DNA from: a virus
Lineage: Duplodnaviria; Caudoviricetes
Reading direction: 5' to 3' (one strand)
DNA length: 64,000 bases
Virus record (IMG/VR): IMGVR_UViG_2551306637_000004
Coordinates: 14,592 to 78,591 of that record
Both the position numbers and the translations under genes were made by a program. The notes under the pieces are model-generated. The model searched no databases, had not been told where the DNA came from, and saw only the letters and a program-made list of their open reading frames with translations. How positions within the stretch are numbered: the first letter of the stretch is position 1; each line of letters begins with the position of its first letter. Below are positions 9,845 to 57,453 of the stretch, in pieces.

Positions 9845-10194
9845 TTGTCCTTGTGCCCCGTGACGATTCTCTCCATCGTCCGGACGAAAAAATCAGTTGC
9901 GTGCTGCGCTACCCAGTCGAGCAGACGTTCACCGTCTTCGATGGACATTTCGATTCGATTGACGTTGATCGGCTTGACGACGTTGCCTTCTTCGTCTCGA
10001 TCGGAAAGCACAACCATCAAGGCGAAGTCACGAAGTTGAGAGTTCGCGGTGACTTGCAACGCGCCTTGGGCATCGCCAATGCCCCGGCACAGTTCGTTGA
10101 GCAAGCCAAAGGACATGAACAGGCTCTTCTTCTCGCCGGCCAGGGTGACTTCGAGTTTTGCAGGCGGGGCTTGTCGCGTGGTGGTGGTCGACAT
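9793..10194 (-). CDS. Tail assembly chaperone G
   Basis: Between tail tube and tape measure genes; start MSTTTT at 10194. Confidence 0.7.
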   Translation of the reverse strand: MSTTTTRQAPPAKLEVTLAGEKKSLFMSFGLLNELCRGIGDAQGALQVTANSQLRDFALMVVLSDRDEEGNVVKPINVNRIEMSIEDGERLLDWVAQHATDFFVRTMERIVTGHKDKENRLKALKELAENPAS

Positions 10195-10279
10195 GTTTTG
10201 GTTTCCTAATGAAAAATCCCCACGATTATGTGTCGTGGGGATTGGTGCTTCAAGGTTTTTCTCCGTACCGGCGTGAACC

Positions 10280-11071
10280 TTAGTTTGCCGACGCCAGCAT
10301 CGCTTGCCCGAACGGCAGGAAGTCGTCGTAGAACGGGTCCGTCGAGACCAGGTCGTACGGCTGGAACTTGTACGGCAGGTTGCCGAACGCGTCGGTCTTG
10401 AACGCCAGCGTGAAGCCACCAGTGATGCGGATCTTCGGGATCAGCAGCGCAACCGGCGTGTTGTCGGCGAGGTTGCCGACCACCTTCGCGGCGAGGAACG
10501 GCTGGTTGGCCTTCGAGCCGATACCCACCACGTTGACCTTCTGGACCACCGTACCGTTCGGCAGCTGGTAGTCGAACTTCTGCGAGCTGACGACTTGCAG
10601 CGTCTTCGCCGTCGAATCGATCGTCTTGACCTTGGCGACGAGCATACGGTCGCTGTAACCCGGCACGACCGCTTGAATCCAGTCGCCGACCGCGAAGCCC
10701 GCGGCCGATGCAACCGGCAGCGTGTCTGCGCCAGCAGCGTTCGCCGGCACGTCGGCGTTCAGCGTGGTCTTGACCGTCGACGGGGTCAGCGCCGAGCCGT
10801 CGAGGCCCAGGCCGTACGCGAGGTTCTTCGACGTGTGCTCGAACACTTCCATCGTGGCGGTCACGGGGTTGCCGGTCATCACCGAGTACACGACGCTGTT
10901 TTTCACACCCTGCGTCAGCTCGGTGTATGCAGGCTGGCCGCTGATCGTGAAGTTCTTCACGAGACCGATCGAGTGCTCGTCGGGATTGAGGTTGAACAGG
11001 TCAGCTTGGGGGCCGATCATCACGGTGGCCGACCCCAGCATGAACTTTTCGGACTTTGCTTCACCAGCCAT
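10280..11071 (-). CDS. Major tail tube protein
   Basis: Position and beta-rich sequence; GGAGA Shine-Dalgarno before ATG 11071. Confidence 0.75.
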   Translation of the reverse strand: MAGEAKSEKFMLGSATVMIGPQADLFNLNPDEHSIGLVKNFTISGQPAYTELTQGVKNSVVYSVMTGNPVTATMEVFEHTSKNLAYGLGLDGSALTPSTVKTTLNADVPANAAGADTLPVASAAGFAVGDWIQAVVPGYSDRMLVAKVKTIDSTAKTLQVVSSQKFDYQLPNGTVVQKVNVVGIGSKANQPFLAAKVVGNLADNTPVALLIPKIRITGGFTLAFKTDAFGNLPYKFQPYDLVSTDPFYDDFLPFGQAMLASAN

Positions 11072-11166
11072 CGTTAGTTCTCCGTTTGAAAATTCTGGTG
11101 GGGCGATCGTACGTGTGATACCTTCGCGAATCAAAGGTTTTTATTGGTATATGGAGGAACCACGCA

Positions 11167-11361
11167 ATGGAATTGGAAGAGCGCGAAGCCTTTACGGTAC
11201 GCATCCCCGTCACGCTCGATGTTCAGATCAAGCAGCGCGCGAGAGTTAATCGTCGTACGCGGAATGCAGAGATCATCCACCTGCTTGAAACCGCGATCGA
11301 CAGTGCCACGAGCGCCGATCAGAAGCTCATCACCAGCATTACGAAGAAAGATCCGCAGTAA
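11167..11361 (+). CDS. Arc-like ribbon-helix-helix DNA-binding protein
   Basis: FTVRIPVTLDVQIKQRARVNRRTRNAEIIHLLE matches the Arc family pattern; GGAGGA RBS upstream. Confidence 0.8.
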   Translation: MELEEREAFTVRIPVTLDVQIKQRARVNRRTRNAEIIHLLETAIDSATSADQKLITSITKKDPQ

Positions 11362-11800
11362 CCGTGGACGATGCCATGAACGCCACCCACTTCATGGATC
11401 GTCCCAACCCTCCACCTACGGGCAAGACGCGCACACCGTTTTGCACCACCATCGTCCCCAGCTTGTCTCCCTTCAACGCATCGAGCACGTCAATCGACTT
11501 CGTCGGCAGAAGCCGTTGAACCAGTGCGCTCATCACTCGCGTCAGATTGAAGTCGTTCGTATCGTTCTCGGTCGCGACTCCGACGACGGCTGATACCGTC
11601 GTCAGATGTTCGTCAAAGTCGAGTGAATACTGGGCGACTCCGATCAGGTTGCCTGGGGGTAGCTTGTCGTAGTCGTGGTACGAGTCGAAGAAGACGGGGT
11701 GAAGCGATATACCCGTCGAGGCCTGAAGGCTGGTCGCCTGGTCTGCGCAGAATCGCAGGAGACTCGACAGGTGATCGCCATAGAGGTTTTCGCTTTTCAT
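11339..11800 (-). CDS. Putative tail terminator protein
   Basis: Synteny (gene before tail tube) and size 153 aa. Confidence 0.5.
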   Translation of the reverse strand: MKSENLYGDHLSSLLRFCADQATSLQASTGISLHPVFFDSYHDYDKLPPGNLIGVAQYSLDFDEHLTTVSAVVGVATENDTNDFNLTRVMSALVQRLLPTKSIDVLDALKGDKLGTMVVQNGVRVLPVGGGLGRSMKWVAFMASSTVTADLSS

Positions 11801-15416: not shown

Positions 15417-15445
15417 GTTTTGATCCGTTGTCAGTTGTTTTTGAA

Positions 15446-15532
15446 CCCCCGTCAGCCCGGTGGTGGGCGGAACTGACGGGGGCTTTGCAGCTCTTCCAGC
15501 AGATGACCCCGGTGGTGGGCGAGGTCATCTGC
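15446..15532 (-). promoter_or_regulatory. Two tandem hairpins with identical CCCACCAC loops in the capsid gene leader
   Basis: Stems 15446-15482 and 15499-15532; loops are the reverse complement of 15460-15467 and 15512-15519. Confidence 0.75.
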
Positions 15533-15541
15533 CGCCGTTCT

Positions 15542-15992: not shown

Positions 15993-16397
15993 TTAACGCG
16001 GCGCGGACTTGAACGCGCTCGACGCGTGAAGCGTCGTCCCCTTCGTTGCACCAGTGCCGGTTTCGGACCCTTGCGAGCGGCCGCCGTTACCAGCGCCCGC
16101 CTTCAGGACTTCAACCTGCGCTTCTGCGGTCGCGAGCTTCGCCTTCAGATCGGCGACCTCGGTTTCAGCAGTCTTTGCCGAAGCTTCCAGCTCCGTCACC
16201 TTCGCTTGCGCCTCGGCCAGCGAAGTTTGCGCGGCCTTCAGCTCCGTGCCTTCCTTCAGCGTCTTGTTCTCGGTGCTCAACGCGTCGTTGGTCGTCTTGA
16301 GCGCCGCGATTTCCGCGTCTTTCAGCGAAATCGTGTGTTCGTGGATCTTCTGGCCCGCCTTCAGGTTGGCCAGCTCTTCGATCAGTTCCTTATCCAT
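15993..16397 (-). CDS. Probable nested scaffold protein (internal in-frame start MDKELIEEL)
   Basis: In-frame ATG 16397 preceded by GGAG and a CCACCACCAC run; start of the coiled-coil region. Confidence 0.55.
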   Translation of the reverse strand: MDKELIEELANLKAGQKIHEHTISLKDAEIAALKTTNDALSTENKTLKEGTELKAAQTSLAEAQAKVTELEASAKTAETEVADLKAKLATAEAQVEVLKAGAGNGGRSQGSETGTGATKGTTLHASSAFKSAPR

Positions 16398-17120
16398 CGT
16401 CTTCGGACTCCGAGGGGATGTGGTGGTGGTGGCAATCAGCATCAAATGCTCGGGTGCGACGCCCGAAGCTGCCAAGCGGTCGTACTGCTCTTGGCCGAGC
16501 CGCTGCTTTGTGCGGCCCAAAATCTTCGCGTTGTTCGCCGCGCCTTTCGACACGAGCGACGTTTCAGTCCATCGATCCAGCCCGTTGATCTTCAGATACG
16601 CGCCGTCTTCGCCGAGCACGTGATCATTCCCGCACACGCGGTCGTAGAAGTTCGAGAAGCTGGCCTCGGGACCACGCCAGTCCCAGCTGCACTTCGAACA
16701 GAGCAGCTGTTGACCGACAAACCCGACGCTGACCTCGTCGATGATCCCGTTTTCGAGCTTCGGGACATTCGAGTCGTCTTTCGGCAGGTAGAAGAGGCAG
16801 ACCAGTTCGCTCGATCCGTCGCCGAGCGTCGACGGGAGGACTTCGCCGTAGAAGAAACGACCGAGGGGGAGTTCGTCTCCGTTCGGGTGAAGGGTCTGGA
16901 GGGGGACGAAGCCGCCACTGTTGAGGTAGCTGGCCATCTGGTTGAGCGTATCAACCTGGATCTGGCCTTTGTCAAAAATCGAACCGGGCTTCGTCAACGG
17001 GCGCGTGTTAGTGACCGAGGCCTCGAACACGACGATCGCGTTGAAGTCGACCTGATCACCCCCGGTGTTGCGGGTGATCAGATTCTGAATTCTCGGTGTG
17101 ATCGGAACGCTCTTAGCCAT
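15993..17120 (-). CDS. Prohead maturation protease with C-terminal scaffold coiled coil
   Basis: HPNGDELPLGRF and EVSVGF protease-type motifs, then an Ala/Glu/Lys coiled coil. Confidence 0.8.
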   Translation of the reverse strand: MAKSVPITPRIQNLITRNTGGDQVDFNAIVVFEASVTNTRPLTKPGSIFDKGQIQVDTLNQMASYLNSGGFVPLQTLHPNGDELPLGRFFYGEVLPSTLGDGSSELVCLFYLPKDDSNVPKLENGIIDEVSVGFVGQQLLCSKCSWDWRGPEASFSNFYDRVCGNDHVLGEDGAYLKINGLDRWTETSLVSKGAANNAKILGRTKQRLGQEQYDRLAASGVAPEHLMLIATTTTSPRSPKTMDKELIEELANLKAGQKIHEHTISLKDAEIAALKTTNDALSTENKTLKEGTELKAAQTSLAEAQAKVTELEASAKTAETEVADLKAKLATAEAQVEVLKAGAGNGGRSQGSETGTGATKGTTLHASSAFKSAPR

Positions 17121-17199: not shown

Positions 17200-18783
17200 T
17201 TAGGGATTCACCGCGTTACTCGCGGCGGACTTCGAACCTTTTGAAGAAAGCGACCGGCCGAGTGGATCGGAGTTGGGGCTGACCTTGCTGACGTCGGGGC
17301 CGTGTGGGCCGCTCGTCTTTCCAGAGCCTCCTTCGGAGCCACCTGCGTTCGGTTGGTCAAGGTTATCTTGAGCGGTCAAGACCTGGACGTTCGTTCCCGG
17401 CATGAAGTTCGTACCACTGAGGATCGGGGCCGAGTCGGGGCGGATGCGCCCATACATCTCCAGGTGGTACTCGTCGTCGTCGATGATGCCCAGCGACAGG
17501 TCAGCTTTCAGGCGCGACGCGCGCATCGTGAGCTGAGGTTCCAGCTCGGTAAGCGGGCGCATCTCGGCGGGGCGGAACTTGCACACCACGCGGGACTGCG
17601 AGCCTTGCAGGCGAATCGCGAGCGTCAGCATGTCCGAGAACAGGTCGGCGATCGGCTGGTTGATCTCTTCGGCCGTCATGCTGAAGAGTCGCGCTTCGAC
17701 CGAGGCTGTGTTCACGCCAGCGTTGCCTCGGCCGAGAATCGTCCCCATCGTGCGCAGGCCGGCTTGGTTCTGCGCGTTCAGCGTCTCGATGATCGACGAG
17801 ATGTCGATGCCCATCCCCGGTGCCTTGTCGTTGATCATACTGACCTCCGACGAGTCCGTATGGACGAATGCCTGATCCGGTCGGATGTTCGCAATCTGGC
17901 CGCTGATCCCGTTGAGCACGCTCGCGACGTACTGCTGCAACTTGACCGGGTTGGCTTTCGTGTCGAGCGGCGCATTACGCGTGATGACGTCTTCCAGCAC
18001 CTTCACTTCGAGACGAGGGTAGCCGGTCAACTGCATGATCCGGTACAGGTCGTTGATCACCTGCTGCCGGCCGGCGATCGTGTTGATCGCGGACACAAAC
18101 GGCGAGTAGGTGTAGATCGTCGTCGGGTCACGCCGGAAGAACTTGCAGAAGAACGTCGGGATCGTCAGATCGATGGTGTCACCTGCCGACGTGCGTTGCT
18201 CAGGCGTGAAGACGCCCGGTTGAGGTTCGATCCACCAGAGTGTCTTCGGGTCGAGCATGCGGAATTCGGTCGGCACGAAGGTCTTGTCGAGCACCATTTC
18301 GCACGGGAGCGATCCGCCGGCGAGGATCATGTACCGGAAGTTCTCGGCCAGCTCCTTGAACGACGGCCTGAAGTCGAAGCCCTTGGAGTAGTCGTTGCGA
18401 ACCTCGTAGCCTTGCATAACTGCGTTGAGGATCTTCTGGCCGTCACGGTCGATCATCCCGTTCACGTCGTAGACGACTGCCATCAGGTCGGTGTTGGCCA
18501 CGGTCAGGTAGGCGTTGGCTGCGGCCGACACGTCCGGGTCCTGGACGAGCAGGGTCTTGATCAGGGCGCGCGAGTCGTTCGCCGTACGCGAGCTGAAGAT
18601 GTCGGTCAGGTGCTCCCGATACGTCGGCATCGTGAGCAGCTGAGTCGGCGCGCTCGGGTTATAAGTACCCGGCATCGACATGCCGCCCTTCGCAGAGCGA
18701 CGCGGCAGGATAATGGAGAGCGCCGCGCCGAGCGCCCCGCCGATTCCCTTAGAAGAAGACTTGGGGGTGGTGGTCGTTGCCAT
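17200..18783 (-). CDS. Portal protein
   Basis: 527 aa directly downstream of the large terminase. Confidence 0.85.
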   Translation of the reverse strand: MATTTTPKSSSKGIGGALGAALSIILPRRSAKGGMSMPGTYNPSAPTQLLTMPTYREHLTDIFSSRTANDSRALIKTLLVQDPDVSAAANAYLTVANTDLMAVVYDVNGMIDRDGQKILNAVMQGYEVRNDYSKGFDFRPSFKELAENFRYMILAGGSLPCEMVLDKTFVPTEFRMLDPKTLWWIEPQPGVFTPEQRTSAGDTIDLTIPTFFCKFFRRDPTTIYTYSPFVSAINTIAGRQQVINDLYRIMQLTGYPRLEVKVLEDVITRNAPLDTKANPVKLQQYVASVLNGISGQIANIRPDQAFVHTDSSEVSMINDKAPGMGIDISSIIETLNAQNQAGLRTMGTILGRGNAGVNTASVEARLFSMTAEEINQPIADLFSDMLTLAIRLQGSQSRVVCKFRPAEMRPLTELEPQLTMRASRLKADLSLGIIDDDEYHLEMYGRIRPDSAPILSGTNFMPGTNVQVLTAQDNLDQPNAGGSEGGSGKTSGPHGPDVSKVSPNSDPLGRSLSSKGSKSAASNAVNP

Positions 18784-20533
18784 AGATCAAGTTGCCAGTG
18801 GTGTGTTTGGTATTGGCCAGCGTGAGTTGACTGGTCTCGTTCATGCCCACGGTCGCGCCGACGATCTGGATGACACTGCGCGTTTCCGTGTTGAAGAGTG
18901 CGGATGCGTTGGTGGTGTGCAGCTTCACGGCAGACAACATGAAGCCCAGCGCGTGGAAGAAGTGATCGTTGCCGTTCAGCTTCTTCCATTCCGCTTCTTT
19001 CTCGGGTTCTTCATTGCGAACCATGTCTTTCAGGTGCTCAACGATCGCCGAGCGGTGCGTCCCGTAGCCGGAGAACTTGATCTTGCGCAGCCGGATGGCT
19101 CGGGCCACTTCGTCGAGCAGGAGCGTCCGGTTGGACTGCATGTGCGTGATCTCGCCGGCAGGGTCCTTGACGAGATTGATTTCCTTCGAGCCACGGTACT
19201 CGTTCGGCAGGACGCGGCGATGCGACACGTCGCGCACCGCCTCGGCGGTCGGCGTGTACGGGTGACGGTCACAACCACCGGCAACGACCCGGTAAGTGGT
19301 CAGGATGCGCGCGATCTCTTCCAGCAAGCGGCCGACCGGCACGGTCAGGAACTCGACCACATGGATCGATGACACGTCGTAGCCCTCGCCGACGACGATG
19401 TGGCAGGTCTGGCCGATGTCGATGCCGATCCACGCCGGCATCGTGTTGCTCGACGGACGGACCAGCTGGAATTCGGTGAAAGCCGCGTTGATGTCCGCGT
19501 CGTTCAGGCGCTGGTCGCCCCCGGTGTGGGAGCGCCCGAGCACGGTGTTGTACCAGCCGCGGATGAAGTCCTTGCGCTTGTAGATGAAGAGCTGCCGCAG
19601 GATGTACTTCGGCGGCAGGCGCTCGGTCGAGAAGGCACGTACGCGGTAGCCGCGCGCGTGCTTGCGCTGCGGGTACTTCGGCACCCATGCGCGGCGCTCG
19701 TGGTCGCCGAGGTTCAGCGGCGCACCGCAGTGCTCGCAGTGGATCGAGACGGCGTCGAGGTCGATCGTGCCGGCGTCGATCATGGCCTCTTCGATCTCCT
19801 CGAAGTCCAGGCTGTCGGGAAGACCAGGGATTCGGACGAACGGGCGCTCGAAATCGGGCACCTGCCAGTGGTTGCAGCAGGCGCACTTCAACATGTACTC
19901 GTGCTGGTCGCTGACCTTGAACGTCTGGTCGATGCCGTAATCCTGGAAGGTCGGCGTCGAAAACCGGTGGTTCAGCTTCCAGTCGGAGCCTTGAAGTCGC
20001 GAGTTGAAGAGGGCAAGCATCGACTGATCGGTCAAGTCCACTTCGTCGTTCACGACCATGTCTGCGGAGATGGACGTCGCGGCCCCTTCACCAGCAGCCG
20101 TGAGGTAGAGGAAGCTCTTGCCGACCTGAATGATCTCTTTCGTGCGCGTTGGCTTCTTGCCACCGAGCGATTCGAGGTTGAATGCGTGCTCCTCGTCGAC
20201 GAGCGGGCGAACGCGGCCGACCGAGATCCGCTCCATCATGGCCTCGTCGGGCAGCGTATAGATGACATTCACGCCACGGTTTCGAGCGATGAACGCGAGC
20301 ACCTTGCGGATCTGCACTTCGGTCAGTCCGACCTGCGACGGCTTGATGCAGTCGAGGTTGTCGTGCATGTCGTCCGCGATCTGCTTCTGGAACGGATAGC
20401 GCTTGAAAGAGAAGGCCCTGTCGTTGTGCGTGGTGTTTTCGCAGATCCAGTCGCCATAGGTCATCGACGCGCGGTCCTTCGACCAGCGGTTCGCGGCGCG
20501 TTCGTAGAGCTGTTGGAGATACTGGTTTGACAT
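18749..20533 (-). CDS. terL: Terminase large subunit (GpA-like)
   Basis: Walker A KPSQVGLTE, Walker B VNDEVD, Cys cluster CACC...CEHC, nuclease IGIDIGQ; start moved to MSNQY at 20533. Confidence 0.92.
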   Translation of the reverse strand: MSNQYLQQLYERAANRWSKDRASMTYGDWICENTTHNDRAFSFKRYPFQKQIADDMHDNLDCIKPSQVGLTEVQIRKVLAFIARNRGVNVIYTLPDEAMMERISVGRVRPLVDEEHAFNLESLGGKKPTRTKEIIQVGKSFLYLTAAGEGAATSISADMVVNDEVDLTDQSMLALFNSRLQGSDWKLNHRFSTPTFQDYGIDQTFKVSDQHEYMLKCACCNHWQVPDFERPFVRIPGLPDSLDFEEIEEAMIDAGTIDLDAVSIHCEHCGAPLNLGDHERRAWVPKYPQRKHARGYRVRAFSTERLPPKYILRQLFIYKRKDFIRGWYNTVLGRSHTGGDQRLNDADINAAFTEFQLVRPSSNTMPAWIGIDIGQTCHIVVGEGYDVSSIHVVEFLTVPVGRLLEEIARILTTYRVVAGGCDRHPYTPTAEAVRDVSHRRVLPNEYRGSKEINLVKDPAGEITHMQSNRTLLLDEVARAIRLRKIKFSGYGTHRSAIVEHLKDMVRNEEPEKEAEWKKLNGNDHFFHALGFMLSAVKLHTTNASALFNTETRSVIQIVGATVGMNETSQLTLANTKHTTGNLIYGNDHHPQVFF

Positions 20534-20738: not shown

Positions 20739-21290
20739 ATGAGCAACGACTTTCACTACCCGGTCATTACCGATCATGTCGAGTGGTCGATCAAGATGAT
20801 CATCACGTTGGCCACGGAGAACGCGGCCTATCTCGACGATGAAGCATGCCCCTACGGTGTCGATTTCAAGAAAGTGATCTCGAACCTGATTCATCGTCAG
20901 GTTGAACCTGAACAAAAGAAGGTTGACATAGCGGATTTCGAGATCACCGAGGACCAGATCGATTCGAGTCTCGACATCGACCTGTATCGAGTCTTCACCG
21001 ACCTGAAGAACTACGGCAAGACCATCCCTCAATCCGATCAGACGGAGCGCATGGCGTACTTCCGCACGGCGACCAGCCTCCTCGAACGTCTGGTGACAGC
21101 TCGTGAGCGCGCGTTGGGGATCAAGCAGATCCGCGACTTCCAAGACACTGTCCTGAGCATCATGGAAGAGTGCATGTCGCCGGATCAGCGCACCGAGGTC
21201 ATGGAACGCCTGCGCAGCGCAATCACCACTCGTCGCTCCGACGATGACGCTGCGTCCACCACCACACAAGAGTCTTCGAATGAGAACTGA
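20739..21290 (+). CDS. Hypothetical protein divergent from terL (possible small terminase)
   Basis: 183-aa helical ORF; function inferred from position only. Confidence 0.6.
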   Translation: MSNDFHYPVITDHVEWSIKMIITLATENAAYLDDEACPYGVDFKKVISNLIHRQVEPEQKKVDIADFEITEDQIDSSLDIDLYRVFTDLKNYGKTIPQSDQTERMAYFRTATSLLERLVTARERALGIKQIRDFQDTVLSIMEECMSPDQRTEVMERLRSAITTRRSDDDAASTTTQESSNEN

Positions 21291-46872: not shown

Positions 46873-46888
46873 GCCACAAGCTGTACGG

Positions 46889-46920
46889 AAAGCCGCGAGT
46901 CAAAAGCTCGCGGCTTTTTT
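46889..46920 (+). terminator. Rho-independent terminator
   Basis: AAGCCGCGAG/CTCGCGGCTT stem plus T-run. Confidence 0.8.
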
Positions 46921-46939
46921 CATGTCCTGCGAGGTCATC

Positions 46940-47716: not shown

Positions 47717-47738
47717 CCACCACCACAAGGATCAAAAC

Positions 47739-47927
47739 ATGGCCTCTGCTGAACGTATTCAGCTACTCGTCATTCAGGACGAGATTTCGAAGCTCCCCGA
47801 AGACGATCGCACGAAGATCGACGGCATCGCCGCCCAGTTCCGGGCGATGCTCGATGCGGAACCGACTCACGCGATGATGGCGCTTGCGCTGGTCGGCGCT
47901 GAAGCCGCCGACAAAGTGGCGGGGTAA
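47739..47927 (+). CDS. Hypothetical protein
   Basis: AAGGATCAAAACATG leader. Confidence 0.7.
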   Translation: MASAERIQLLVIQDEISKLPEDDRTKIDGIAAQFRAMLDAEPTHAMMALALVGAEAADKVAG

Positions 47928-47930
47928 GCG

Positions 47931-50615
47931 ATGGACAAGGATCGCAAAGTCCTTGTCGATGCGCGCAACATCGACGCTCTCCTTCCGCAGATCATCGCGG
48001 AAGTAGCGTCGGCCGGATTTATCGGTTTCGACATCGAGACCGAGGACTCGCGCAGGCATGCAGGCCTCGCCGAGATCATGAAGGTCGACGACGAGGGCAG
48101 GGGGACGAACAAGAAGCTCATCTTCGACACGAACCGCACGACCGTGTGTGGCTTTTCGGTCTACCCGGATGGTAACCATCTCGGCTACTACGTCAACCTC
48201 GCGCACGCCGACGCCGAGAACCGTGTGCCCTGGGAGGTCGCGCGCCAGATTCTCGACGCCCGCCAACCGGACTCTTTCTTCATCATCCACAACGCTCAGT
48301 TTGAGTGGGTCATGATGATGAAGTCGCTCGGCTTCGACATTCCGGAAGATCGCGTCATCTGCTCGTTGCAGCTTTGCGTGTCGGCGTATTCGCCCGACAC
48401 GTACTTCCGCGACAAGTTCATGGAGTCGGGTCTCGGCGGCATCGAGAAGATCCTGCCTGTGGTTGCTCGTGTGTTTTCTGGCTACCAACCGGGTCAAGAT
48501 CTGAACTCCGAGCAAGAAGAACTGTTGCAGAAGGTCATCGGCAAGGAGTCGAAGGCCGCGCATAGCTGGAATGGCTACGTCGACTCGATGCGGATCGGCT
48601 ACGACCTGAAGCGTGCCGTGAAGAGCTGGTTCGGCTACGCGATGGCCACGTTCGAAGAGACGCTGGGCGAAGAAGTCCACATGGGCATGCTGACCGGCGA
48701 GGAAGTCTACGAGTACGGCGTGGACGATGCCTACTGGTGTGTTCAGCTGTTCCACCGTGTGCTTCAGCACATGATGGAGACCAACCCAGCGGTCTTCAGC
48801 ACGTTCATGGAACAGGAGATGCCGTTCGTTCGCATCGCGGCCGAGACGTGGGGTCACGGCATCAAGCTGAACGGGCCGGCTGTGCTGCGTCGGCGGGACG
48901 AAGAGCGTGCCAACGAGGCCGCGTGCCTGCGCAAGATGAAGGCTGCGGTGCGCGCGATGCTGCCGTTCCCGGACGAGCCGCACGACAAGCTGCTGAAGTA
49001 TGACAAGTGGTACGCGAAGTGGCAGACGTATCGCGCTCAGATCGAGAAGTGGGCGAACTCGTCGAACAGCGACGATGACTTCATTCAGTGCATGCAGACA
49101 CGCGGCCCGGTTTCGAACGCGTGGGCGCTGGAGCGCAAGGTGCGCGAATCGACGGGCGTCAACCTTGTCCACTACATGCCGATGCGGACGATCATCTACG
49201 ACCTGATGCGCGGCTCCTACATGCAGTCCAACGGCAAGACGCAAAGCGATGGCGACTGCCGCGAAGAGCTGAAGCGCCGCTGGATCAAACGTCACCGCGA
49301 CGCCGGTCTGGAGATCGACGATAACGGCGAAGTGGCACCGGCGCTGAAGCTGGGCGTGACGCTGAACAAGCGTATGCAGATCGACCACTTCGAAGCCGGC
49401 ATGATGATCTTTCAGTGCTACGACGAGCTGGCCTCGATCTCGCAGCGGATGAAGCTCTACCTGACGCCTTACCTACGCCTCGTGGACCCTGACACGGGCC
49501 GTGTGTACCCGCAGCTGCGCTCGCTGCTCGCGACGCGCCGCAGTTCGTGCCAGGACCCGAACGGGCAGCAGCTCAGCAAGTACGGCGAGTCGGTGTACGT
49601 GCGTGGCTTCTTCGAAGCCGACGATGACGACGCCGAAGGCGAGGAGCACGTGCTGGTGTCGGCCGACTGGTCCGCCGTCGAGCTGGTGATCGTGGGCGAT
49701 TACTCGAACGACTCAGGCTTCCGCGAGGCCTACGGCCAGCGCCCTCACGCGGATCTGCACAAGAAGGCCGTGACCGGTCTGATGAACCTTACCGACGAAG
49801 AGTACGCCGTCCACCCGGATCGGAAGATGCTGCGTCGCGACGTCGGCAAGGTGGCGAACTTCAACTACTGGTACTCGGGCGCACTGGGCACCGTGGGCGA
49901 GAAGCTTGGCTGGTCGAGCGACTTCATGTGGGAGATGGTCGATCGCTACCGGGGCACGTTCCCGGACGCGGAGCAGTGGCGTGTCGACACGATCCAGGAA
50001 GCCCGTGACAACGGCTACGTGCAGCTGCCTGACCACCATCGGCGTGACCGTTACGAGTCGACGTACGAGTGGGTGAACGTCATGCGGCAGAAGTTCGCGT
50101 CGTACGGTGACCCGGCCATTGCTGCGTTCGGCGAGCTGGTGATCAAGAAAATCAACCGCCGCGCCGGCAATCAGTCGGTCAACGCGAAGGTTCAAGGCTT
50201 GTGCGCGGCGCTCGCGAAGCGTGCGATGAAGCGCATGAAGGCCAAGATCAAGGAGATGGGATACCGCGCCCGCTTCTACCTGCTGGTCCACGATGAATTG
50301 ATCTACTCCGTCCCGCGCTCGCAGGTGCTCGACTTCTGCGAAACGCTGTACGAAGTGATGATCGAAGACGCCGGCCTGATCAAGAACCTGAAGCTCGACT
50401 CGTCGCTCGCGATCGGCCGCACGATGCAGCCGTGGGATCTCAAGAAGGCCCCGGATGGCCAGATCGAACTCATGGAGATGCAGAGGGGCCTGCCGTGCGT
50501 CAGCGAAGACCGCTGGGAACAACGAGCCACGCGCGAAGAGCGTCTGGCGATCCTCAACTACATACTCGACGGCATGCCCGTCGCAGCTAACGAAGCAGTG
50601 GAGTGCGCAGCATGA
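47931..50615 (+). CDS. polA: DNA polymerase family A with 3'-5' exonuclease
   Basis: Exo motifs DIETE, HNAQFE, YGVDDA; polymerase motifs DWSAVEL, KVANFNYWYSG, LLVHDE. Confidence 0.95.
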   Translation: MDKDRKVLVDARNIDALLPQIIAEVASAGFIGFDIETEDSRRHAGLAEIMKVDDEGRGTNKKLIFDTNRTTVCGFSVYPDGNHLGYYVNLAHADAENRVPWEVARQILDARQPDSFFIIHNAQFEWVMMMKSLGFDIPEDRVICSLQLCVSAYSPDTYFRDKFMESGLGGIEKILPVVARVFSGYQPGQDLNSEQEELLQKVIGKESKAAHSWNGYVDSMRIGYDLKRAVKSWFGYAMATFEETLGEEVHMGMLTGEEVYEYGVDDAYWCVQLFHRVLQHMMETNPAVFSTFMEQEMPFVRIAAETWGHGIKLNGPAVLRRRDEERANEAACLRKMKAAVRAMLPFPDEPHDKLLKYDKWYAKWQTYRAQIEKWANSSNSDDDFIQCMQTRGPVSNAWALERKVRESTGVNLVHYMPMRTIIYDLMRGSYMQSNGKTQSDGDCREELKRRWIKRHRDAGLEIDDNGEVAPALKLGVTLNKRMQIDHFEAGMMIFQCYDELASISQRMKLYLTPYLRLVDPDTGRVYPQLRSLLATRRSSCQDPNGQQLSKYGESVYVRGFFEADDDDAEGEEHVLVSADWSAVELVIVGDYSNDSGFREAYGQRPHADLHKKAVTGLMNLTDEEYAVHPDRKMLRRDVGKVANFNYWYSGALGTVGEKLGWSSDFMWEMVDRYRGTFPDAEQWRVDTIQEARDNGYVQLPDHHRRDRYESTYEWVNVMRQKFASYGDPAIAAFGELVIKKINRRAGNQSVNAKVQGLCAALAKRAMKRMKAKIKEMGYRARFYLLVHDELIYSVPRSQVLDFCETLYEVMIEDAGLIKNLKLDSSLAIGRTMQPWDLKKAPDGQIELMEMQRGLPCVSEDRWEQRATREERLAILNYILDGMPVAANEAVECAA

Positions 50616-50830
50616 GCAACAAAGTCACCAAGTCGACCACGATGGTCGCGTTCGAAACCATGAGCGGCTACGAGTCGCGCGCCGGATCGCAGAATCGACC
50701 CGGCACCGAAGCGCTCGAATGGGGCCTGCGCGAGATCGTCCGCGTCATGACCATCAACGGTGACAAGGCGAGGGTCGCCGAGATCGTCGCCGAAGCCACC
50801 GCTGCCGTCGAGAAGGATCTGACGTCGTGA
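50612..50830 (+). CDS. Hypothetical protein
   Basis: ATGA coupling. Confidence 0.6.
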   Translation: MSNKVTKSTTMVAFETMSGYESRAGSQNRPGTEALEWGLREIVRVMTINGDKARVAEIVAEATAAVEKDLTS

Positions 50831-51057
50831 AGTCGAAGCTCACGCTCCAGGATCTGACGCGTGAGCAGCGCAACGACCTGCGGAAGATGTGTATTCCGCG
50901 GGTCGTGCTGGACCTCTTGCAGCTGATCCAAGAAAAAGACCACGAACTGGCCACCCTGAAGAACACCACCACGAAGGACCAATCATGTACCGCTTTAACC
51001 GACTCATGGCCGAGTGCCGTGCAACCACATCTCGCATCGAGAAGACGGAAGCTCTGA
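50827..51057 (+). CDS. Hypothetical protein
   Basis: GTGA coupling; overlaps the ligase start. Confidence 0.5.
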   Translation: MKSKLTLQDLTREQRNDLRKMCIPRVVLDLLQLIQEKDHELATLKNTTTKDQSCTALTDSWPSAVQPHLASRRRKL

Positions 51058-52274
51058 CGAAGCTCGGCGCGAACGAAGATGAATTCGCGAAGACGATGCT
51101 GGTCGCTGCGCTGTCGCCATTTGTGACCTATGGCGTGAAGAACTTCGACATGCCGACTGGCTTCGCGGTGGAGAACGTTGACGCTGGCGTGATGTTCCTC
51201 CAACTGCTGGACGACCTTGCGGTGCGCAACTACACCGGGAAAGCCGCGCAGTCGGCAATCGCGAACGTGCTGTCGCACTACACGCACGAGACCGCCGAGA
51301 ATATGTCGTGCGTGCTCCGCAAGGAACTGCGCATCGGCATCGGTGCGACCGAGATCAACAAGGTCTTCCCGGACCTGATCCCGGTCTTCGACGTGATGCT
51401 GGCTGAGAAGTGGGAACCGGGCGTCACCGATATCATGTACCCGGCGCAGGCCGAGTTCAAGATGGACGGCCAGCGCGACACGGTCTTCGTCATCCCCGGC
51501 CAGCCGTGCGAGCACTACTCGCGCGAAGGCCTGCGCCAACCGTGGATCGAGGGCCTGTTCGACGACGAGATGCAGGCGATTCGCCAGCGCCTCTGCGGCG
51601 ACGAGGCGATGGTGCTCGACGGCGAGGCGATGGCCCACGTCGTCGATCCGACGAAGAAGCATCCCTCCTGGACGGCCACGATGAACTGCAAGAAGGAGGG
51701 GGCTGACCGCTCGAAACTTCGCTACTACGCCTACGACTGGATGCCTATGTCGGAGTGGGTGAAGCGTCAGTGTTCGCGTCAGCAGGATCTTCGAAGCTTG
51801 ATGCTCGACGCGGCAATCAGCGATCTGGCGCTCAGCAAGATCTACCCGTCATACAAGGAAACGGTCTCGGATCGTGCCCAGGTCAACGCTATGTTCGATC
51901 AGGCACTCTCGCTCGGTTATGAAGGCCTGATCGTCAAGGACCCGAGCGCATTGTACGAGTGGGACCGCTCGACGTCCTGGCTGAAGGCGAAGCCGCTGCA
52001 TACGGCCACGCTGCGAATCGTCGGCGTCTATGAGGGAAAGAAGAAGGGAAGGAACGAGGGTCGCCTCGGGGGCTTCCAGCTCGAAGGAACGATTGAGGAT
52101 GGCACCGAGATCAAGACCGATTGCGGCGGTGGGTTCACGGATGATCAGCGTGAACTCTTCTTCAAACATCCGGAGATGGTTGTGGGCCGGATGGCTGAAG
52201 TCGAGTACATGGAAGTAACGAAGAAGAACGCGTTGCGTAACCCGGTATTTCTGCGGTTTCCGGACGGTAACTAG
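50985..52274 (+). CDS. ATP-dependent DNA ligase
   Basis: EFKMDGQR (KxDG), LDGE, YAYD, EGLIVK, WLKAK, OB-fold; AAGGA RBS before ATG 50985. Confidence 0.95.
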   Translation: MYRFNRLMAECRATTSRIEKTEALTKLGANEDEFAKTMLVAALSPFVTYGVKNFDMPTGFAVENVDAGVMFLQLLDDLAVRNYTGKAAQSAIANVLSHYTHETAENMSCVLRKELRIGIGATEINKVFPDLIPVFDVMLAEKWEPGVTDIMYPAQAEFKMDGQRDTVFVIPGQPCEHYSREGLRQPWIEGLFDDEMQAIRQRLCGDEAMVLDGEAMAHVVDPTKKHPSWTATMNCKKEGADRSKLRYYAYDWMPMSEWVKRQCSRQQDLRSLMLDAAISDLALSKIYPSYKETVSDRAQVNAMFDQALSLGYEGLIVKDPSALYEWDRSTSWLKAKPLHTATLRIVGVYEGKKKGRNEGRLGGFQLEGTIEDGTEIKTDCGGGFTDDQRELFFKHPEMVVGRMAEVEYMEVTKKNALRNPVFLRFPDGN

Positions 52275-52351
52275 CATATAGTCGCCGAACTTCTTCGGTG
52301 GTTATCTCCATATAATGCTTAGCACACCACCACCACATCAGTAAAAGAAAA

Positions 52352-52759
52352 ATGAGCATTGCATGGAAAGACGCGGAGAGCGAGTTCGAGTCGTTCTTCG
52401 CGCCCTTCGGCAAGCGCGCGCATGTGCAGCGCTTGACCGACACCGCCTACGTTCGCGGTTCGACAGGGCGGGCCGCATCGTTCAAAGATGCGCAACCGTC
52501 TGACTACATCATCACTCTTGAAGGGACCACGTTCTACGCTGAGGTCAAGAGCACTCAGAGCGAGCCGTCGTTTCCCTTCAGCATGATCAAGAAGAGCCAG
52601 TGGGCAGCAGCCCGAATGGTCACCGCAGCTGGCGGACATTACCGCTTCTACATTCGCCGCGAGACGACGAAGCGCTGGTACGTCGTCCCGGCAGTTGTAT
52701 TCATCACCCATACAGCCAAATCGATCCGCTGGCACGAGATCGATGGCTACCTCATCTAA
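52352..52759 (+). CDS. PD-(D/E)xK Holliday junction resolvase-like nuclease
   Basis: PSDYII...FYAEVKST. Confidence 0.75.
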   Translation: MSIAWKDAESEFESFFAPFGKRAHVQRLTDTAYVRGSTGRAASFKDAQPSDYIITLEGTTFYAEVKSTQSEPSFPFSMIKKSQWAAARMVTAAGGHYRFYIRRETTKRWYVVPAVVFITHTAKSIRWHEIDGYLI

Positions 52760-52772
52760 CAAGGATCAAAAC

Positions 52773-53375
52773 ATGACCAAGTATCTCGACGTGATGGTCG
52801 ACCTGGAAACGACTGGCACTCAGCCTGAGCGCACGGCAATCATCGAAATCGCGGCGGTTCGCTTCGATTTCGCATCGGGCGAGATCATGCCCGAGATGTT
52901 CAACCGCTGCCTGATGATTCCGCATGGTCGCTTCTTCGACGAAGAGACCCGCAACTGGTGGCTCAAGGACAAGCGCGAGATCCTGCAAGGCATCTACGCG
53001 CGGATGGAGCGCCCGGAGGTTGTGATGCAGGCGTTCCGCGATTTCCTGCTGCGTGACGTCGACACGTACAACGAGAAGCTGCGTTTGTGGGCGAAGCCGT
53101 CGCACTTCGAATATCCCTTCCTCGAAAGCTATTTCAAGGAATTCGAGATTGGCAATCCGTTCCACTACCGCGACACGAACGACATGAACTCGTGGATTCG
53201 CGGGCGCTACTGGCCGCAGCAACCGCCCGAGTTCGAACGAAACATCCCGTTCGAAGGCGACGCCCACAGCGCGCTGTTCGACGTGCTCCACCAGCTCAAG
53301 GTCCTCTACGCAGTGCGTGACCACTCCACGAAGCACCCCAGCCTCGCAGCAGCCGGCGACGTCGTCGAAGCATAA
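52773..53375 (+). CDS. DEDDh 3'-5' exonuclease
   Basis: VMVDLETTG...HSALFD; AAGGATCAAAACATG leader. Confidence 0.88.
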   Translation: MTKYLDVMVDLETTGTQPERTAIIEIAAVRFDFASGEIMPEMFNRCLMIPHGRFFDEETRNWWLKDKREILQGIYARMERPEVVMQAFRDFLLRDVDTYNEKLRLWAKPSHFEYPFLESYFKEFEIGNPFHYRDTNDMNSWIRGRYWPQQPPEFERNIPFEGDAHSALFDVLHQLKVLYAVRDHSTKHPSLAAAGDVVEA

Positions 53376-53443
53376 GCGGTAGCGCAACCGAGAGAGCAGC
53401 GCGCTACGGCGCGCTGTACCACCACTTCACTAGGTTGTGAATC

Positions 53444-54448
53444 ATGAAAATCGAAACTATCGCCGGCCTCCGGGTCGGCTTTCTTGGCGACCCCCATCTC
53501 GGTCGTGCTTTCCTGACCGGTGTCCCTCTTGATCGTCGCGGCGAGCGCGAGCGAACGCAGATGCACGAATTCGTCGAGTCGTTGTTCGCGGACGTCGACG
53601 TGAACATCTGCCTCGGCGACATCTTCGACACGTTCGTTGTTCCTCCCGAGATCGTCCTGGCCGTCGCGTCGTCGTACCGCGAAGCAGCGCGCGCTCGACC
53701 CAACACGTGGTTCATCCTCACGCGTGGCAACCATGATGCTTCGCGCGACGCCGACAAGCGCAGCTCGTTCGACCTGTTGTACCAGCTGCTCGACGGCATC
53801 GAGAACATCGTCATCGCGAAGGACGACGTCCAGGTCGTCGAACACGGCATCTTCCGTCTCGGCGTCGTGCCCTGGCACCCCTTCATCAACTCGAAGGAAA
53901 TGGCGCGCAAGCTGGTCGAAGACGGCTACAAGGAGTTCGATCTGATCGTCGGCCACTGGGATCGCGTCACGTTTGAGGACAACCCGCACAATGCGATCCC
54001 GATGCTTGAGCTGCGCCCACTGACGAAGCTGGTCGCCAGCGGCCACGATCACCACCCGTACGACGAAGTGATCAACGGCGTGCGCGTCGTGTTCCCCGGC
54101 TCAATGCAACCGTACGCACACGGCGAAAACGACGAAGACGGGCGCTACGTCACGCTCACGCTGGAAGAGCTGCGCGCAGTCGTCGCTAGCACGCCGGCCC
54201 AGTTCCACGACGTGGCCGTGCGTGTGCTGCTCAAACCGGGCGAGCAGATCGATTTCCCGGTTGACGCGTGGGCACTGACGACAAAGCCGATTGCCGACAA
54301 CGGCGAGGAGTACGTCGACATCACCATGCAGACCGAGTCGTTTGACATGGTCGACATCCTGTCGCGCTGCCTGACAAAGCACAACGTCACCGCCGAGACT
54401 TCAAACGAAGTGCTCGCCATGTATCAAGAACGCCGTAACGCTGCTTGA
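53444..54448 (+). CDS. sbcD: Mre11/SbcD-like metallophosphoesterase nuclease
   Basis: GDPHLG, GDIFD, GNHD, GHW, SGHDH; adjacent to an SbcC gene. Confidence 0.88.
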   Translation: MKIETIAGLRVGFLGDPHLGRAFLTGVPLDRRGERERTQMHEFVESLFADVDVNICLGDIFDTFVVPPEIVLAVASSYREAARARPNTWFILTRGNHDASRDADKRSSFDLLYQLLDGIENIVIAKDDVQVVEHGIFRLGVVPWHPFINSKEMARKLVEDGYKEFDLIVGHWDRVTFEDNPHNAIPMLELRPLTKLVASGHDHHPYDEVINGVRVVFPGSMQPYAHGENDEDGRYVTLTLEELRAVVASTPAQFHDVAVRVLLKPGEQIDFPVDAWALTTKPIADNGEEYVDITMQTESFDMVDILSRCLTKHNVTAETSNEVLAMYQERRNAA

Positions 54449-54458
54449 GGAAAGCATC

Positions 54459-56471
54459 ATGCTGCTGAACCTGAATATCAAGAACGGCTACCGTCACCCG
54501 AACTCGACGTTCGTGTTTCCGATCGGCCAAACGGCGATCACGGGACCGAACGAGTCGGGCAAGAGCGTCACGCTGGAGATGATTTTGTTCGCGCTGTGGG
54601 GCAGCGTCGCGCTGCGCGGCGCAGCCGACGACTACAAGAAGCTCGAAGTGACGCTCGAATTCCTCGTGCGTGACCAGACCTATCGCATCGTCCGCACGAC
54701 GAAGAACGCGAAGCTGACGCGCGCTGGTGAAGACGTCGCGACGGGCACGAAGCCGGTCAACGCGAAGATTCGCGAGCTGTTCGGCTACGACTACGACGTG
54801 TTCACGATGGCGAACGCCGTGCTGCAAGGCCAGATCGAGAAGCTGTCGGACGCGAAGCCGACCGAGCGCCGCAAGATCGTCGACCAGACGATTGGCCTGA
54901 ACGTGCTTGACGACATCGTGACCGATCTCGGCAAGCAAGCGCTCGCGTTCCGCAATCAGGCTGACGGCATCGCCGCGGTGCTGCGCGAGCCGGTCAAGCC
55001 CGAGCAGCCGGTCGACTTCGAGTCGAGCACGACGCTCGGCCAGAAGCGCGACAACGTCGCGACCCTGGTCAACGAGCTGAACCAGCTGCGCGGTATGGTG
55101 GCCCACAAGCCGTCCGAGCCGGTCGCCCCCACGTGCGCCATCGGCGAGACCGTCGAGACGCTACAGAGCCTGATTGCGGCCCGTAACGAGCTGGTTGCGG
55201 CGAAGGGCACGCTGGAGAGCGCAGCGGCTGATCAGCGGGCTACCCTGAAGCGTCTGAGCGACGGACTCAAGGCAGTGACCAGGGACGGCACCGTGGCCCG
55301 TCTGGAGGCTGACATCGGCCGCATCGAGAAGCAGATCGCCGGCCTGGCAGAGCCGGTGCTGACGATCGACCAGATCGAAGCGCTGGAGCAGCAGCACATC
55401 GATCACGACATGTGGGTGCAGAAGCAGAAGCTGTTGGGGCAGGGCGAGCACATCTGCCCGAGCTGCGACCACCACTGGCCGATCGCGTCAGCCGCGCTGG
55501 CGCCGTACGCAGCGGTGGTCGATACTGCCGCGCCGTCGATGACGCGCGTCGAGCTGAACGCCCAGCGCGCGCTGCACGGCAACACCGAGCGCCGCGCCGC
55601 GCTCGCCCAGGAGATCGTCGAGTTGCGCGAGCGCATCGAGCGCACGAAGCAGGAAACGCAGGCTGCGATGGACGCCCAAAAGGCGAAGATCGTCAAGGCC
55701 GAACAGGAGGTCGCCGAGACTTCCGAAGCGGTCTTGACCCTTCAGAACGCGATTGACAATACGCCCGATCGCAGTGATGACCTGAAGGAGCGTCAGGCGT
55801 ACGAAGGTCAGCTCGTCGCGCACCATGCGCAGGTGCTCAGCTACAACGAGTTCTTCGCGAAGCTGGCCGAGCGCGAGGCGCGCGTCGAGGAGCTGGCCGG
55901 CGTCGAGGCCGAGCTGGGCAAGCTGGACGAGCAACTGGTCGCTGCGCGCGCCTACGAGCAGGCCGTGGGCGCGTACGAGGCGCAGATGGCCACGTACAGC
56001 GTCGACAAGGCGAAGCTCGACGCGTTGAATGCCGCTGCCGATGACAAGGCCGCGGCGAAGGCGGCGGTAGCGGAAGCGAAGCTCGTGATCAAGTCGCATC
56101 TCGTGCCGTCGCTCAACAAGGTAGCGTCCGTGCTGCTCAACCAGATGACCGGTGGCGCACGTACGTCGATCGTGGTGGATGAAGACTTCAACATCACGGT
56201 CGACGGCCAAGCAGTGCAAACGCTGTCCGGTTCCGGAAAGGCTGTCGCGAATCTCGCACTCCGGATTGGTCTCGGTCAGGTGCTGACCAATGGTGTGTTC
56301 TCCGTCTTCATGGCCGACGAGTTCGACGAGTCGATGGACGCACAACGTGCTCAGTACACCGCCGAGTGTCTGCAACGTCTGAAGGAGACCATCAAGCAGG
56401 TGATCATTGTTACGCACAAGCGCCCGATCGCAGACCACATCTTCACTCTCCCTTTGAAAGAGGCCGCATGA
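54459..56471 (+). CDS. sbcC: Rad50/SbcC SMC-like ATPase
   Basis: Walker A GPNESGKS, coiled coils, CPSC zinc hook, LSGSG signature, Walker B ADEFDESMD. Confidence 0.93.
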   Translation: MLLNLNIKNGYRHPNSTFVFPIGQTAITGPNESGKSVTLEMILFALWGSVALRGAADDYKKLEVTLEFLVRDQTYRIVRTTKNAKLTRAGEDVATGTKPVNAKIRELFGYDYDVFTMANAVLQGQIEKLSDAKPTERRKIVDQTIGLNVLDDIVTDLGKQALAFRNQADGIAAVLREPVKPEQPVDFESSTTLGQKRDNVATLVNELNQLRGMVAHKPSEPVAPTCAIGETVETLQSLIAARNELVAAKGTLESAAADQRATLKRLSDGLKAVTRDGTVARLEADIGRIEKQIAGLAEPVLTIDQIEALEQQHIDHDMWVQKQKLLGQGEHICPSCDHHWPIASAALAPYAAVVDTAAPSMTRVELNAQRALHGNTERRAALAQEIVELRERIERTKQETQAAMDAQKAKIVKAEQEVAETSEAVLTLQNAIDNTPDRSDDLKERQAYEGQLVAHHAQVLSYNEFFAKLAEREARVEELAGVEAELGKLDEQLVAARAYEQAVGAYEAQMATYSVDKAKLDALNAAADDKAAAKAAVAEAKLVIKSHLVPSLNKVASVLLNQMTGGARTSIVVDEDFNITVDGQAVQTLSGSGKAVANLALRIGLGQVLTNGVFSVFMADEFDESMDAQRAQYTAECLQRLKETIKQVIIVTHKRPIADHIFTLPLKEAA

Positions 56472-56478
56472 GGAATTA

Positions 56479-56826
56479 ATGGAGTCCATCAAAACGCTAC
56501 TTGATCAAAACTTCACCCCCGAGCTTATCGCCACGTTCCTTGACACCACCCTGGAACGTGTCGTCGAAGAGATGAACAAAATGGAACTCTTCGGCTGGGG
56601 AAACCCTGGAAATTACGCCTTCATCATTGCGCGCAAGTACCCTGCAGAACGCCGCTGGAATGAAAGGTTTGAACGGATTCTGGCAAGCGCACGTGAGAAG
56701 CACGACAAAGGGCTGATCACGATGGTTCAGGTTCGAGATGACGACATGATCATCCAATACGCGATGCCTGTCGAACGTCCTGTTCCGCGCCGACTCTGGT
56801 TTACCGCACCACCCGAGACTTACTAA
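56479..56826 (+). CDS. Hypothetical protein
   Basis: GAGGA RBS. Confidence 0.7.
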   Translation: MESIKTLLDQNFTPELIATFLDTTLERVVEEMNKMELFGWGNPGNYAFIIARKYPAERRWNERFERILASAREKHDKGLITMVQVRDDDMIIQYAMPVERPVPRRLWFTAPPETY

Positions 56827-56827
56827 A

Positions 56828-57406
56828 ATGAACTTCGAACAATACAAACCTCTGGCCCTTCGCACCGAGAAGCCCCTGGCAACTTCTCTGCTGCGCCTGC
56901 AACACGCATCGCTCGGTCTCACGACCGAACACGGTGAGTTCACGACCGAAGTCAAACGCCTTTGGGCGTACCAGAAGCCGCTCACGCAGGAGATGCGCGA
57001 ACACATCTTCGAAGAGCTGGGTGACATCCTCTGGTACGTGGCCATCGGTGCCGACGCCCTCGACTTCGAGATTCCCGAATACCAGCATCTCTTCGACTTC
57101 GACCTCAGCGCGCTACCGCTCGCGGAACAGCTCCAGATCGTCGCGAATCGCATCTCGGTCGAGATCGGCTTCTTCACGTACGAAGTGCCGCTGCATCAAG
57201 ACGCGCGCGCCCGCACGGGTGCGATGCGCAGCCTCGTGAACATCCTCAGCGGCGTGGCCCATGCTTGCGATGCGCTCGATATGCCTCTCGAAGAAGTCAT
57301 GTCCGCGAACATCGCGAAGCTGAAGCAGCGCTTCCCGGATGCCTACACGAATGCCGCCGCTGAAGCGCGCGCGGACAAGGGCGGTCTGGACGCTCGCAAC
57401 TCGTAA
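56828..57406 (+). CDS. mazG: MazG-like nucleotide pyrophosphohydrolase
   Basis: EHGEFTTEVKR...EELGDILWY...NIAKLKQRFP. Confidence 0.85.
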   Translation: MNFEQYKPLALRTEKPLATSLLRLQHASLGLTTEHGEFTTEVKRLWAYQKPLTQEMREHIFEELGDILWYVAIGADALDFEIPEYQHLFDFDLSALPLAEQLQIVANRISVEIGFFTYEVPLHQDARARTGAMRSLVNILSGVAHACDALDMPLEEVMSANIAKLKQRFPDAYTNAAAEARADKGGLDARNS

Positions 57407-57453
57407 ACCACCACACGTAGGAAGGGCCGACCACCACCGGCCCTGAAGACAAG

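Follow-up and report, generated by a model that had tools for sequence, protein, structure and literature searches.

The C4 antisense RNA of P1/P7 immI (PMC8198154) and the CI RNA of P4 (PMC4825925) are structured, phage-encoded, trans-acting RNAs that pair via short segments and support lysogeny. A predicted RNA that resembles them in being phage-encoded, structured and complementary to more than one site on phage transcripts, and for which a role in lysogeny is proposed here, was found in a 64,000-nt stretch of virus record IMGVR_UViG_2551306637_000004 (hereafter the window), where it is the putative reader of CCACCAC, a tag that recurs at the translation starts of this phage. The window comprises bases 14592–78591 of a 78,591-base provirus record and spans from a small excisionase-like gene to the integrase. 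Matches to its genes are found in Achromobacter phage JWF (64% identity for the DNA polymerase), a capsid gene 95% identical to its own is found in Burkholderia paludis MSh1, and near-identical copies of other window proteins are labelled B. pseudomallei, B. cepacia or B. ubonensis; the last two observations identify the host as a Burkholderia. The window is a JWF-like Burkholderia prophage. It was compared, as G000, with 14 related virus records (G001–G014) and with phages JWF and Lumi.

The targets of C4 and CI number two or so and lie in the operon of the RNA itself, and both RNAs mature by processing of the transcript under their control. For the window RNA, in contrast, a separate promoter and terminator are predicted, along with three or more different seeds and some 30 target cistrons throughout the genome. 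It is a stand-alone unit with dispersed targets instead of the leader of its own operon. No Rfam family reached its gathering score in the window (best E-values 0.38–2.3, unrelated families), and there is thus no Rfam match to C4/CI and no sign of homology to the GcvB family. In mechanism, the RNA would resemble GcvB, the G/U-rich seed of which pairs with C/A-rich elements near many mRNA starts and silences translation enhancers (PMC3879156), as the window RNA also has a G/U-rich seed facing C/A-rich elements at varying distances from the start. GcvB, however, is an Hfq-dependent small RNA (sRNA) of the host directed at amino-acid transport genes, whereas the window RNA is phage-encoded, has its targets in its own genome and displays both seeds and targets in loops. 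Several features of a GcvB-like trans-encoded sRNA are seen at the sequence level, namely its own promoter and intrinsic terminator (both predicted), the lack of a conserved open reading frame (ORF), a conserved seed complementary to many start-region targets, and co-change of seed and target.

The cis-antisense RNAs sar of P22, OOP and aQ of lambda and STnc6030 of BTP1 take part in lysis-lysogeny or superinfection control (PMC12197685; PMC7067206), each with one overlapping or nearby target, whereas the window RNA overlaps no called gene. The tag itself recalls the start-associated SAS motif of cluster K mycobacteriophages, an oriented motif that precedes a subset of start codons, the RNA or protein reader of which is not known and of which three cluster K genomes carry one copy on the opposite strand (PMC3203893). 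Both are oriented tags on a subset of genes. SAS, however, has a 13-bp consensus that includes a strong Shine–Dalgarno (SD) sequence and forms no hairpins, while CCACCAC is unrelated in sequence, marks SD-poor genes and has a candidate reader. The phage RNAs covered by reviews act either on host genes or on a neighbouring target or two, and two reviews (PMC12197685, PMC7067206) describe no phage RNA whose regulon extends over the genome of its own phage. To these systems the window RNA would add a proteobacterial host, several seeds, structured targets and a target set of about 30 that covers every class of gene. By the same token, unexplained start-associated motifs of other phages, such as SAS, may have an antisense reader. 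Nothing relevant on the CCACCAC motif was found in the literature, most subscription journals lying outside the scope of the search.

Distribution and display of the CCACCAC tag

The initial annotation had listed CCACCAC sites on the coding strand of both arms, clustered near starts, and all of these sites are present within 0–2 nt. CCACCAC is the most over-represented 7-mer of the coding strand, with 52 occurrences against 8.4 expected from an order-3 Markov model and five in antisense orientation; for ACCACCAC, the counts are 39 coding and none antisense. The start-proximal clustering is equally clear, since CCACCAC occurs 40 times in start regions against 1.4 expected from coding interiors, which hold the motif at chance level. 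After merging, 31 of 44 sites lie within −130 to +30 of a called start, with positions peaking at −25 to −17 and at +4/+7, and three further sites precede starts that were missed or misplaced by the gene caller (2296, 41053 and 16426–16432, the last before a conserved internal ATG at 16397). The tag is found on 20 of the 41 genes that are preceded by a gap, and hence independently initiated, but on only 5 of 39 coupled genes. CCACCAC thus marks about half of the independently initiated genes; in all, it is found at the start of some 30 genes. Two occurrences do not count as tags, namely 23992 (+), where the seed of the RNA itself is read in reverse complement, and 25884 (−), situated in the loop of a terminator.

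The motif could alternatively be a DNA-level, Chi-like site, given that its reverse complement GTGGTGG resembles the Chi sequences of some proteobacteria, or a by-product of threonine codons and unstructured C/A-rich leaders; all but one of the in-gene copies are indeed in the threonine frame. Shuffling of upstream regions, however, left the motif in 0.8 genes on average (maximum 4 in 1000 shuffles) compared with 19 of 84 in the real sequence, and codon shuffling of the first 12 codons reduced it from 8 genes to 0.2. The poly-threonine N-termini cannot be attributed to threonine usage alone either, as ACC-ACC is found in 28 of 35 N-terminal threonine runs and in 24 of 54 interior ones (p = 0.001). 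Other words made up of A and C only are no more enriched than in JWF, the spread regardless of starts that is typical of Chi is not seen, stems covary, and a complementary RNA co-occurs with the motif. An origin as a Chi-like site or by-product is therefore extremely improbable and already largely refuted. An origin as a host feature was also rejected: in 400 kb of B. paludis, for which the start calls are rough, the motif marked 4 of 285 called genes, at 0.10 sites per kb compared with 0.75. The same pattern is present in G001–G010 and G014, and is not found in JWF, G011, G012, Lumi or the 400-kb host sample.

Of the five 8-nt loops that had been described in the window, those at 15460–15467, 15512–15519, 46091–46098 and 57430–57437 fold accordingly, while the one at 47716–47723 has a stem of only 4 bp and prefers another fold. 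The proposal of a conserved loop on unrelated stems is borne out across six phages, in which the 8-nt register (one base followed by CCACCAC) holds 41 stems and no other register more than six. In the capsid leader, the loops are retained and the stems entirely replaced in the loci of seven more distant relatives. The tags are generally accessible, with an unpaired probability of about 0.85.

A predicted small RNA and its proposed pairing with tagged leaders

A search for non-coding reverse-complement copies of the tag yielded one site that is kept in every tagged phage covering the primase region, just 3' of the primase gene. It lies in a predicted small RNA gene of about 165 nt on the minus strand (24014–23848; the 5' end, placed from the promoter, is accurate to ±3 nt) between the HNH endonuclease and primase genes. 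A putative sigma70-like promoter precedes it at 24048–24020 (−), with TTGCAA at 24048–24043, a 17-nt spacer and TAAAGT at 24025–24020. In the window this promoter has 8 of 12 consensus matches only, which is under the promoter-scan threshold; its place and 17-nt spacer are kept in relatives, for example as TTGCAA/TATAGT and TTGCAC/TATATT. The predicted RNA folds into five hairpins with −72.6 kcal/mol (z −4.87), and neither strand has a conserved ORF; a frame of 6–11 codons lacks a start codon in G009 and L132 and is not fixed in length.

Hairpin 1 (24012–23980, −) carries the 16-nt seed S1 (24003–23988) around GUGGUGG, antisense to ACCACCAC and its flanks; S1 is invariant in 12 sequences and the surrounding stem covaries. 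Hairpin 2 (23979–23960, −) varies in sequence and length. Hairpin 3 (23956–23929, −) has the invariant loop UGGCCAG (seed S2, 23946–23938), which is antisense to CTGGCCA in leaders, is self-complementary, and is also complementary to the 3' end of the host 16S rRNA. The palindrome UGGCCA within this loop could let two RNA copies pair loop to loop. Hairpin 4 (23927–23913, −), with a covarying stem and a variable loop, matches CCCTGAAG in four leaders of the window phage; in other lineages no tags matching their hairpin-4 loops were found. It is followed by a single-stranded region (23913–23888, −) made up of the conserved segment GUUUUGAUC, seed S4 (23913–23902), antisense to GATCAAAAC-ATG, and of a lineage-specific linker with a 13-nt match to the leader of gene 46159. 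The intrinsic terminator hairpin and U tract (23887–23848, −) complete the RNA, and 7 of the 13 pairs in this hairpin change on both sides. In all, both partners are exchanged at 17 of the 34 consensus pairs among the 12 sequences, which represent about six lineages, so that these counts overstate independence; 96% of cells pair, compared with 39–54% in slid controls. The palindrome TAGCTA, conserved in the terminator loop (23865–23873), also forms repeats that precede the integrase genes of G004, G005 and G008, and may be a further seed or a DNA site.

The RNA was found in 12 related phage sequences, and an IMG/VR pattern scan returned only 11 records other than the window. A covariance model detected no RNA in JWF, G011–G013 or Lumi, no further members were found in metagenome scans, GenBank phages or plasmids, and 400 sampled genomes of the order contained no copy of the two-seed pattern except for the B. 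paludis prophage. RNA and tags are jointly present in G000–G010 and jointly missing in JWF, G011, G012 and Lumi. An earlier sRNA candidate, the terminator hairpin at 25865–25896 (+) with a GTGGTG loop, 3' of gene 25071–25829, was rejected as the main reader because it is kept in the four nearest relatives only and missing from the tagged G005–G010; it could be a second, minor seed.

When motifs were sought in the start regions of the window phage without reference to the RNA, the top three were CCACCAC (z 14), CTGGCCA (z 10) and AGGATCA (z 6.6), and each mirrors one conserved RNA segment, the third as GGATCAAAAC-ATG. The three tags occur together: CTGGCCA is present in 9 of 25 CCACCAC-tagged leaders and 1 of 59 untagged ones (p = 4.5e-5), and GATC followed by three purines in 7 of 25 and 2 of 59, respectively (p = 0.002). 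Their order is roughly kept, with CTGGCCA at −56 to −28, CCACCAC at −25 to −14 or +4 to +13, and GATC-purines mostly at −11 to −9; all three are present in the excisionase leader. With S1, a duplex of up to 18 bp could form on the leader of gene 29982, and five leaders match S4 over 12 bases.

The strongest evidence for direct pairing is the co-change of seed and target in S4 and the linker. Target positions opposite a U of S4 vary between A and G only, as predicted by G-U wobble with a minus-strand RNA. In G009, S4 has a U-to-C change, and leaders of this phage have GGATCG rather than GGATCA at a ratio of 8:1, compared with 5:17 among the remaining phages (p = 0.0012). Five orthologous leaders are open to comparison, and every one of them switches from A to G. 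On the RNA side the seed change counts as a single evolutionary event, which is mirrored independently at several leaders, and GGATCA/GGATCG thus constitutes a natural compensatory seed-tag pair. Furthermore, when the 3' single strand of each RNA was matched to the leaders of its own phage, the true pairing ranked first among 120 permutations at three thresholds. For S1 and CCACCAC, the case for pairing consists of complementarity, co-occurrence and joint presence, as S1 and S2 are invariant and thus uninformative on co-change. Taken together, the CCACCAC tags are very probably base-pairing sites for a trans-acting, phage-encoded RNA.

The initial annotation had proposed an RNA element read by a phage protein or an sRNA. 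An element that acts at the RNA level, is associated with starts and is displayed in loops agrees with these data, and a phage sRNA is its likely reader; the protein half of the proposal is less well supported. Its named candidates, a KTSC protein (42365–42592) and a helix-turn-helix (HTH) protein (42601–43005), were rejected because both genes also occur in G011 and in JWF, which is without the motif. Recognition of the tags by a phage or host protein in the style of CsrA or RegA, with the conserved intergenic element serving as a plus-strand decoy transcript, would suit the fixed 8-nt loop register and the absence of a clear C-to-U tolerance in CCACCAC, and the plus strand folds as well (z −4.22). 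The promoter and U tract, however, point to transcription from the minus strand, as do its G-U pairs, which become A-C mismatches on the plus strand, and the purine-only variation of S4 targets is what G-U wobble predicts. In favour of a protein reader, a small basic protein (31770–31976, +; 68 aa), 46 residues of which form a conserved core, occurs in tagged phages only, being present in all complete ones and missing from JWF, G011 and G012; it has no RNA-binding family match and was rejected as a reader, since it tracks the tags but has only five homologues and belongs to no family. A protein reader is thus very unlikely.

Proposed repression of phage translation

Host sigma70 polymerase would transcribe the RNA, also from the prophage, and its 5' loop would pair with CCACCAC displayed unpaired or in the 8-nt loop, which could allow an initial loop-to-loop kissing contact. 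Two further seeds would bind the same leaders, at CTGGCCA and at GGATCAAAAC up to the AUG (−11 to +2). Duplexes that cover the SD spacer, the AUG or the first codons block binding of the 30S subunit, as is established for sRNAs. Most of the predicted duplexes lie in or beside the 30S footprint and would mask C/A-rich elements on mRNAs with a weak SD, such that initiation would be blocked and coupled downstream genes silenced along with the leader gene. GGAG or GAGG is found in 11 of 67 tagged genes compared with 69 of 172 other uncoupled genes (p = 4e-4), and this weaker SD would ease silencing. The result would be a second, genome-wide lock that contributes to keeping lysogeny by acting on the genes for excisionase, replication, head, tail and lysis; it might also confer superinfection immunity, and a surge of lytic transcripts would deplete the RNA by titration. 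The annotated alternatives of activation, processing or antitermination are less well matched by the evidence, which favours translational repression. If pairing takes place, repression is its likely outcome, and a role in lysogeny would, granted repression, be highly likely. On balance, the RNA probably acts as an antisense repressor with several seeds, is directed at about 30 phage cistrons and helps to hold lysogeny. It would then be an RNA counterpart of a master repressor and place a large share of life-cycle control at the level of translation, and, if the RNA alone confers immunity, this would bear on the choice of Burkholderia phages for therapy.

The scarcity of GGAG/GAGG on tagged genes is also what would be expected if the RNA activated translation, either by opening leader hairpins or as an adaptor that joins SD-poor mRNAs to the 16S 3' end as an SD in trans. 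In two parA leaders, the tag forms the loop of a hairpin that hides the SD, and the predicted pairing of hairpin 3 to the 3' end of the host 16S rRNA has an energy of −24.9 kcal/mol, which beats 60 of 60 shuffles in the window and at least 55 of 60 in eight of nine sequences. Against this, the duplex with S4 would extend as far as the AUG and across it, and that with S1 in many cases over codons 2–4, both of which would block initiation, and the SD deficit is modest when controlled (−4.3 vs −5.8 kcal/mol in the window; −4.9 in JWF). The mRNA targets of the S2 loop explain its conservation, and the 16S pairing is post hoc, could form only once helix 45 and the stem within the RNA itself have opened, and falls short of significance in G006 (16 of 60). 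The resemblance to the 16S 3' end that had been noted is thus measurable but not required to explain the data, and activation is an improbable function. More doubtful still is a translation adaptor or two-way switch, in which a 16S arm and the tag arms would provide a private initiation route or, in a milder form, the RNA would repress lytic and activate plasmid-partition genes.

As regards lysogeny, all complete carriers of the RNA have an integrase or a ParA-type gene, and two also have Rep3, so that all of them look temperate. G000–G005 are proviruses, an integrase is present in G008 and a ParA-type gene in G010, and G006 and G009 combine a ParA-type gene with Rep3. G011 has no integrase match and the annotation of JWF lists none. 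Integrase and ParA (plus Rep3) plasmid modules interchange at the same genome position in close relatives (L073:2668–4596, L063:2901–5005, L079:8409–9098), which indicates that the group includes both prophages and phage-plasmids. No CI-like repressor was seen in the window, where the sole HTH match is a gene shared with JWF; together with the temperate appearance of the carriers, this favours a genome-wide RNA lock on lytic translation. The same RNA and tags could instead serve as an infection timer or threshold that damps gene dosage or delays late and lysis genes. The targets extend from excisionase to endolysin and cover early, replication and late genes, the integrase included, immunity could be carried by a separate palindromic operator-like system, and lifestyle and relatedness are confounded. 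A timer is nevertheless unlikely, as JWF and G011, without integrase or ParA, manage without the RNA, the complete carriers are all temperate by gene content, and a sigma70-type promoter would be active in the lysogen.

Several observations weigh against a lysogeny-maintaining repressor. The direction of regulation is deduced from geometry only, and the SD-hiding hairpins of the parA leaders suggest activation at parA. Integrase leaders and the two parA leaders are tagged as well, and the model does not explain how capsid and other late mRNAs escape repression. The link to a temperate lifestyle is confounded by ancestry, since the carriers look like one related group, and provirus G012 is without the RNA system. 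RNAduplex energies over the whole window did not differ significantly between start regions and coding windows for any seed (p 0.06–0.93, accessibility being ignored), and all starts come from our own caller, a simple codon and SD model. Finally, the palindromic operator-like site GTKCAA-N-TTGMAC has eleven copies in the early region (24964, 25002, 26039, 26539, 27226, 27962, 29067, 30080, 31206, 32729 and 35610, all +), and relatives carry palindromes of their own, those of G005, G009, G006, JWF, G012 and Lumi all being different. Such a family of sites implies an additional regulator, in this case a protein, and the role of main repressor need not fall to the RNA. One candidate binder is the divergent 252-aa protein encoded at 25071–25829, 3' of two palindrome copies; no Pfam family matches it, and its structure model is of low confidence (pLDDT 48).

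Tagged genes and neighbouring features

On the minus strand, a tail-region tag (2290–2296) is located at −22 of ORF 1906–2274 and supports this ORF as a genuine gene of the tail region. In the gene for the tail assembly chaperone, the tag is at +7/+10 (10178–10194), within the N-terminus MSTTTT. The major capsid leader (15417–15541) has an S4 tag at −9 and displays N-CCACCAC in the 8-nt loops of two hairpins (15518, 15466), and the portal gene start (18767–18820) has an S2 tag at −37 and an S1 tag at +10. Tags can also expose hidden starts, as at 16397–16432 inside gene 15993–17120, where a tag precedes an internal in-frame ATG (16397) with GGAG. This ATG is conserved, also in JWF, and, given its position, probably initiates a scaffold protein that is encoded within the prohead protease gene.

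On the plus strand, the primase gene is tagged at −24/−21 (21256–21265); this leader tag is present in G001–G005 and G007–G010 and not in G006. Early-region tags between 27573 and 42364 are found at 27573, 28162, 29085/29106, 29965/29973, 30904, 32404/32437, 35355, 35632/35669, 38641, 39086, 41053, 41525 and, in the KTSC leader, 42276/42322/42356. For gene 41003–41218, the tags point to an ATG near 41070 as the start instead of the GTG at 41003. In the replication region (46092–57437), tags are located at 46092, 47717/47730, 50947/50966, 52327, 52764 (S4 only) and 53419, and in the thymidylate synthase leader at 57408/57431.

An accessory region adjoins the integrase at 59356–63376, consisting of an SRAP gene (59356–60012) and low-GC ORFs (60204–63376). 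A Pfam scan of the window gave two guanylate-cyclase matches and one PycTM match, which were assigned by position to the latter ORFs; these would form a Pycsar-like defence system.

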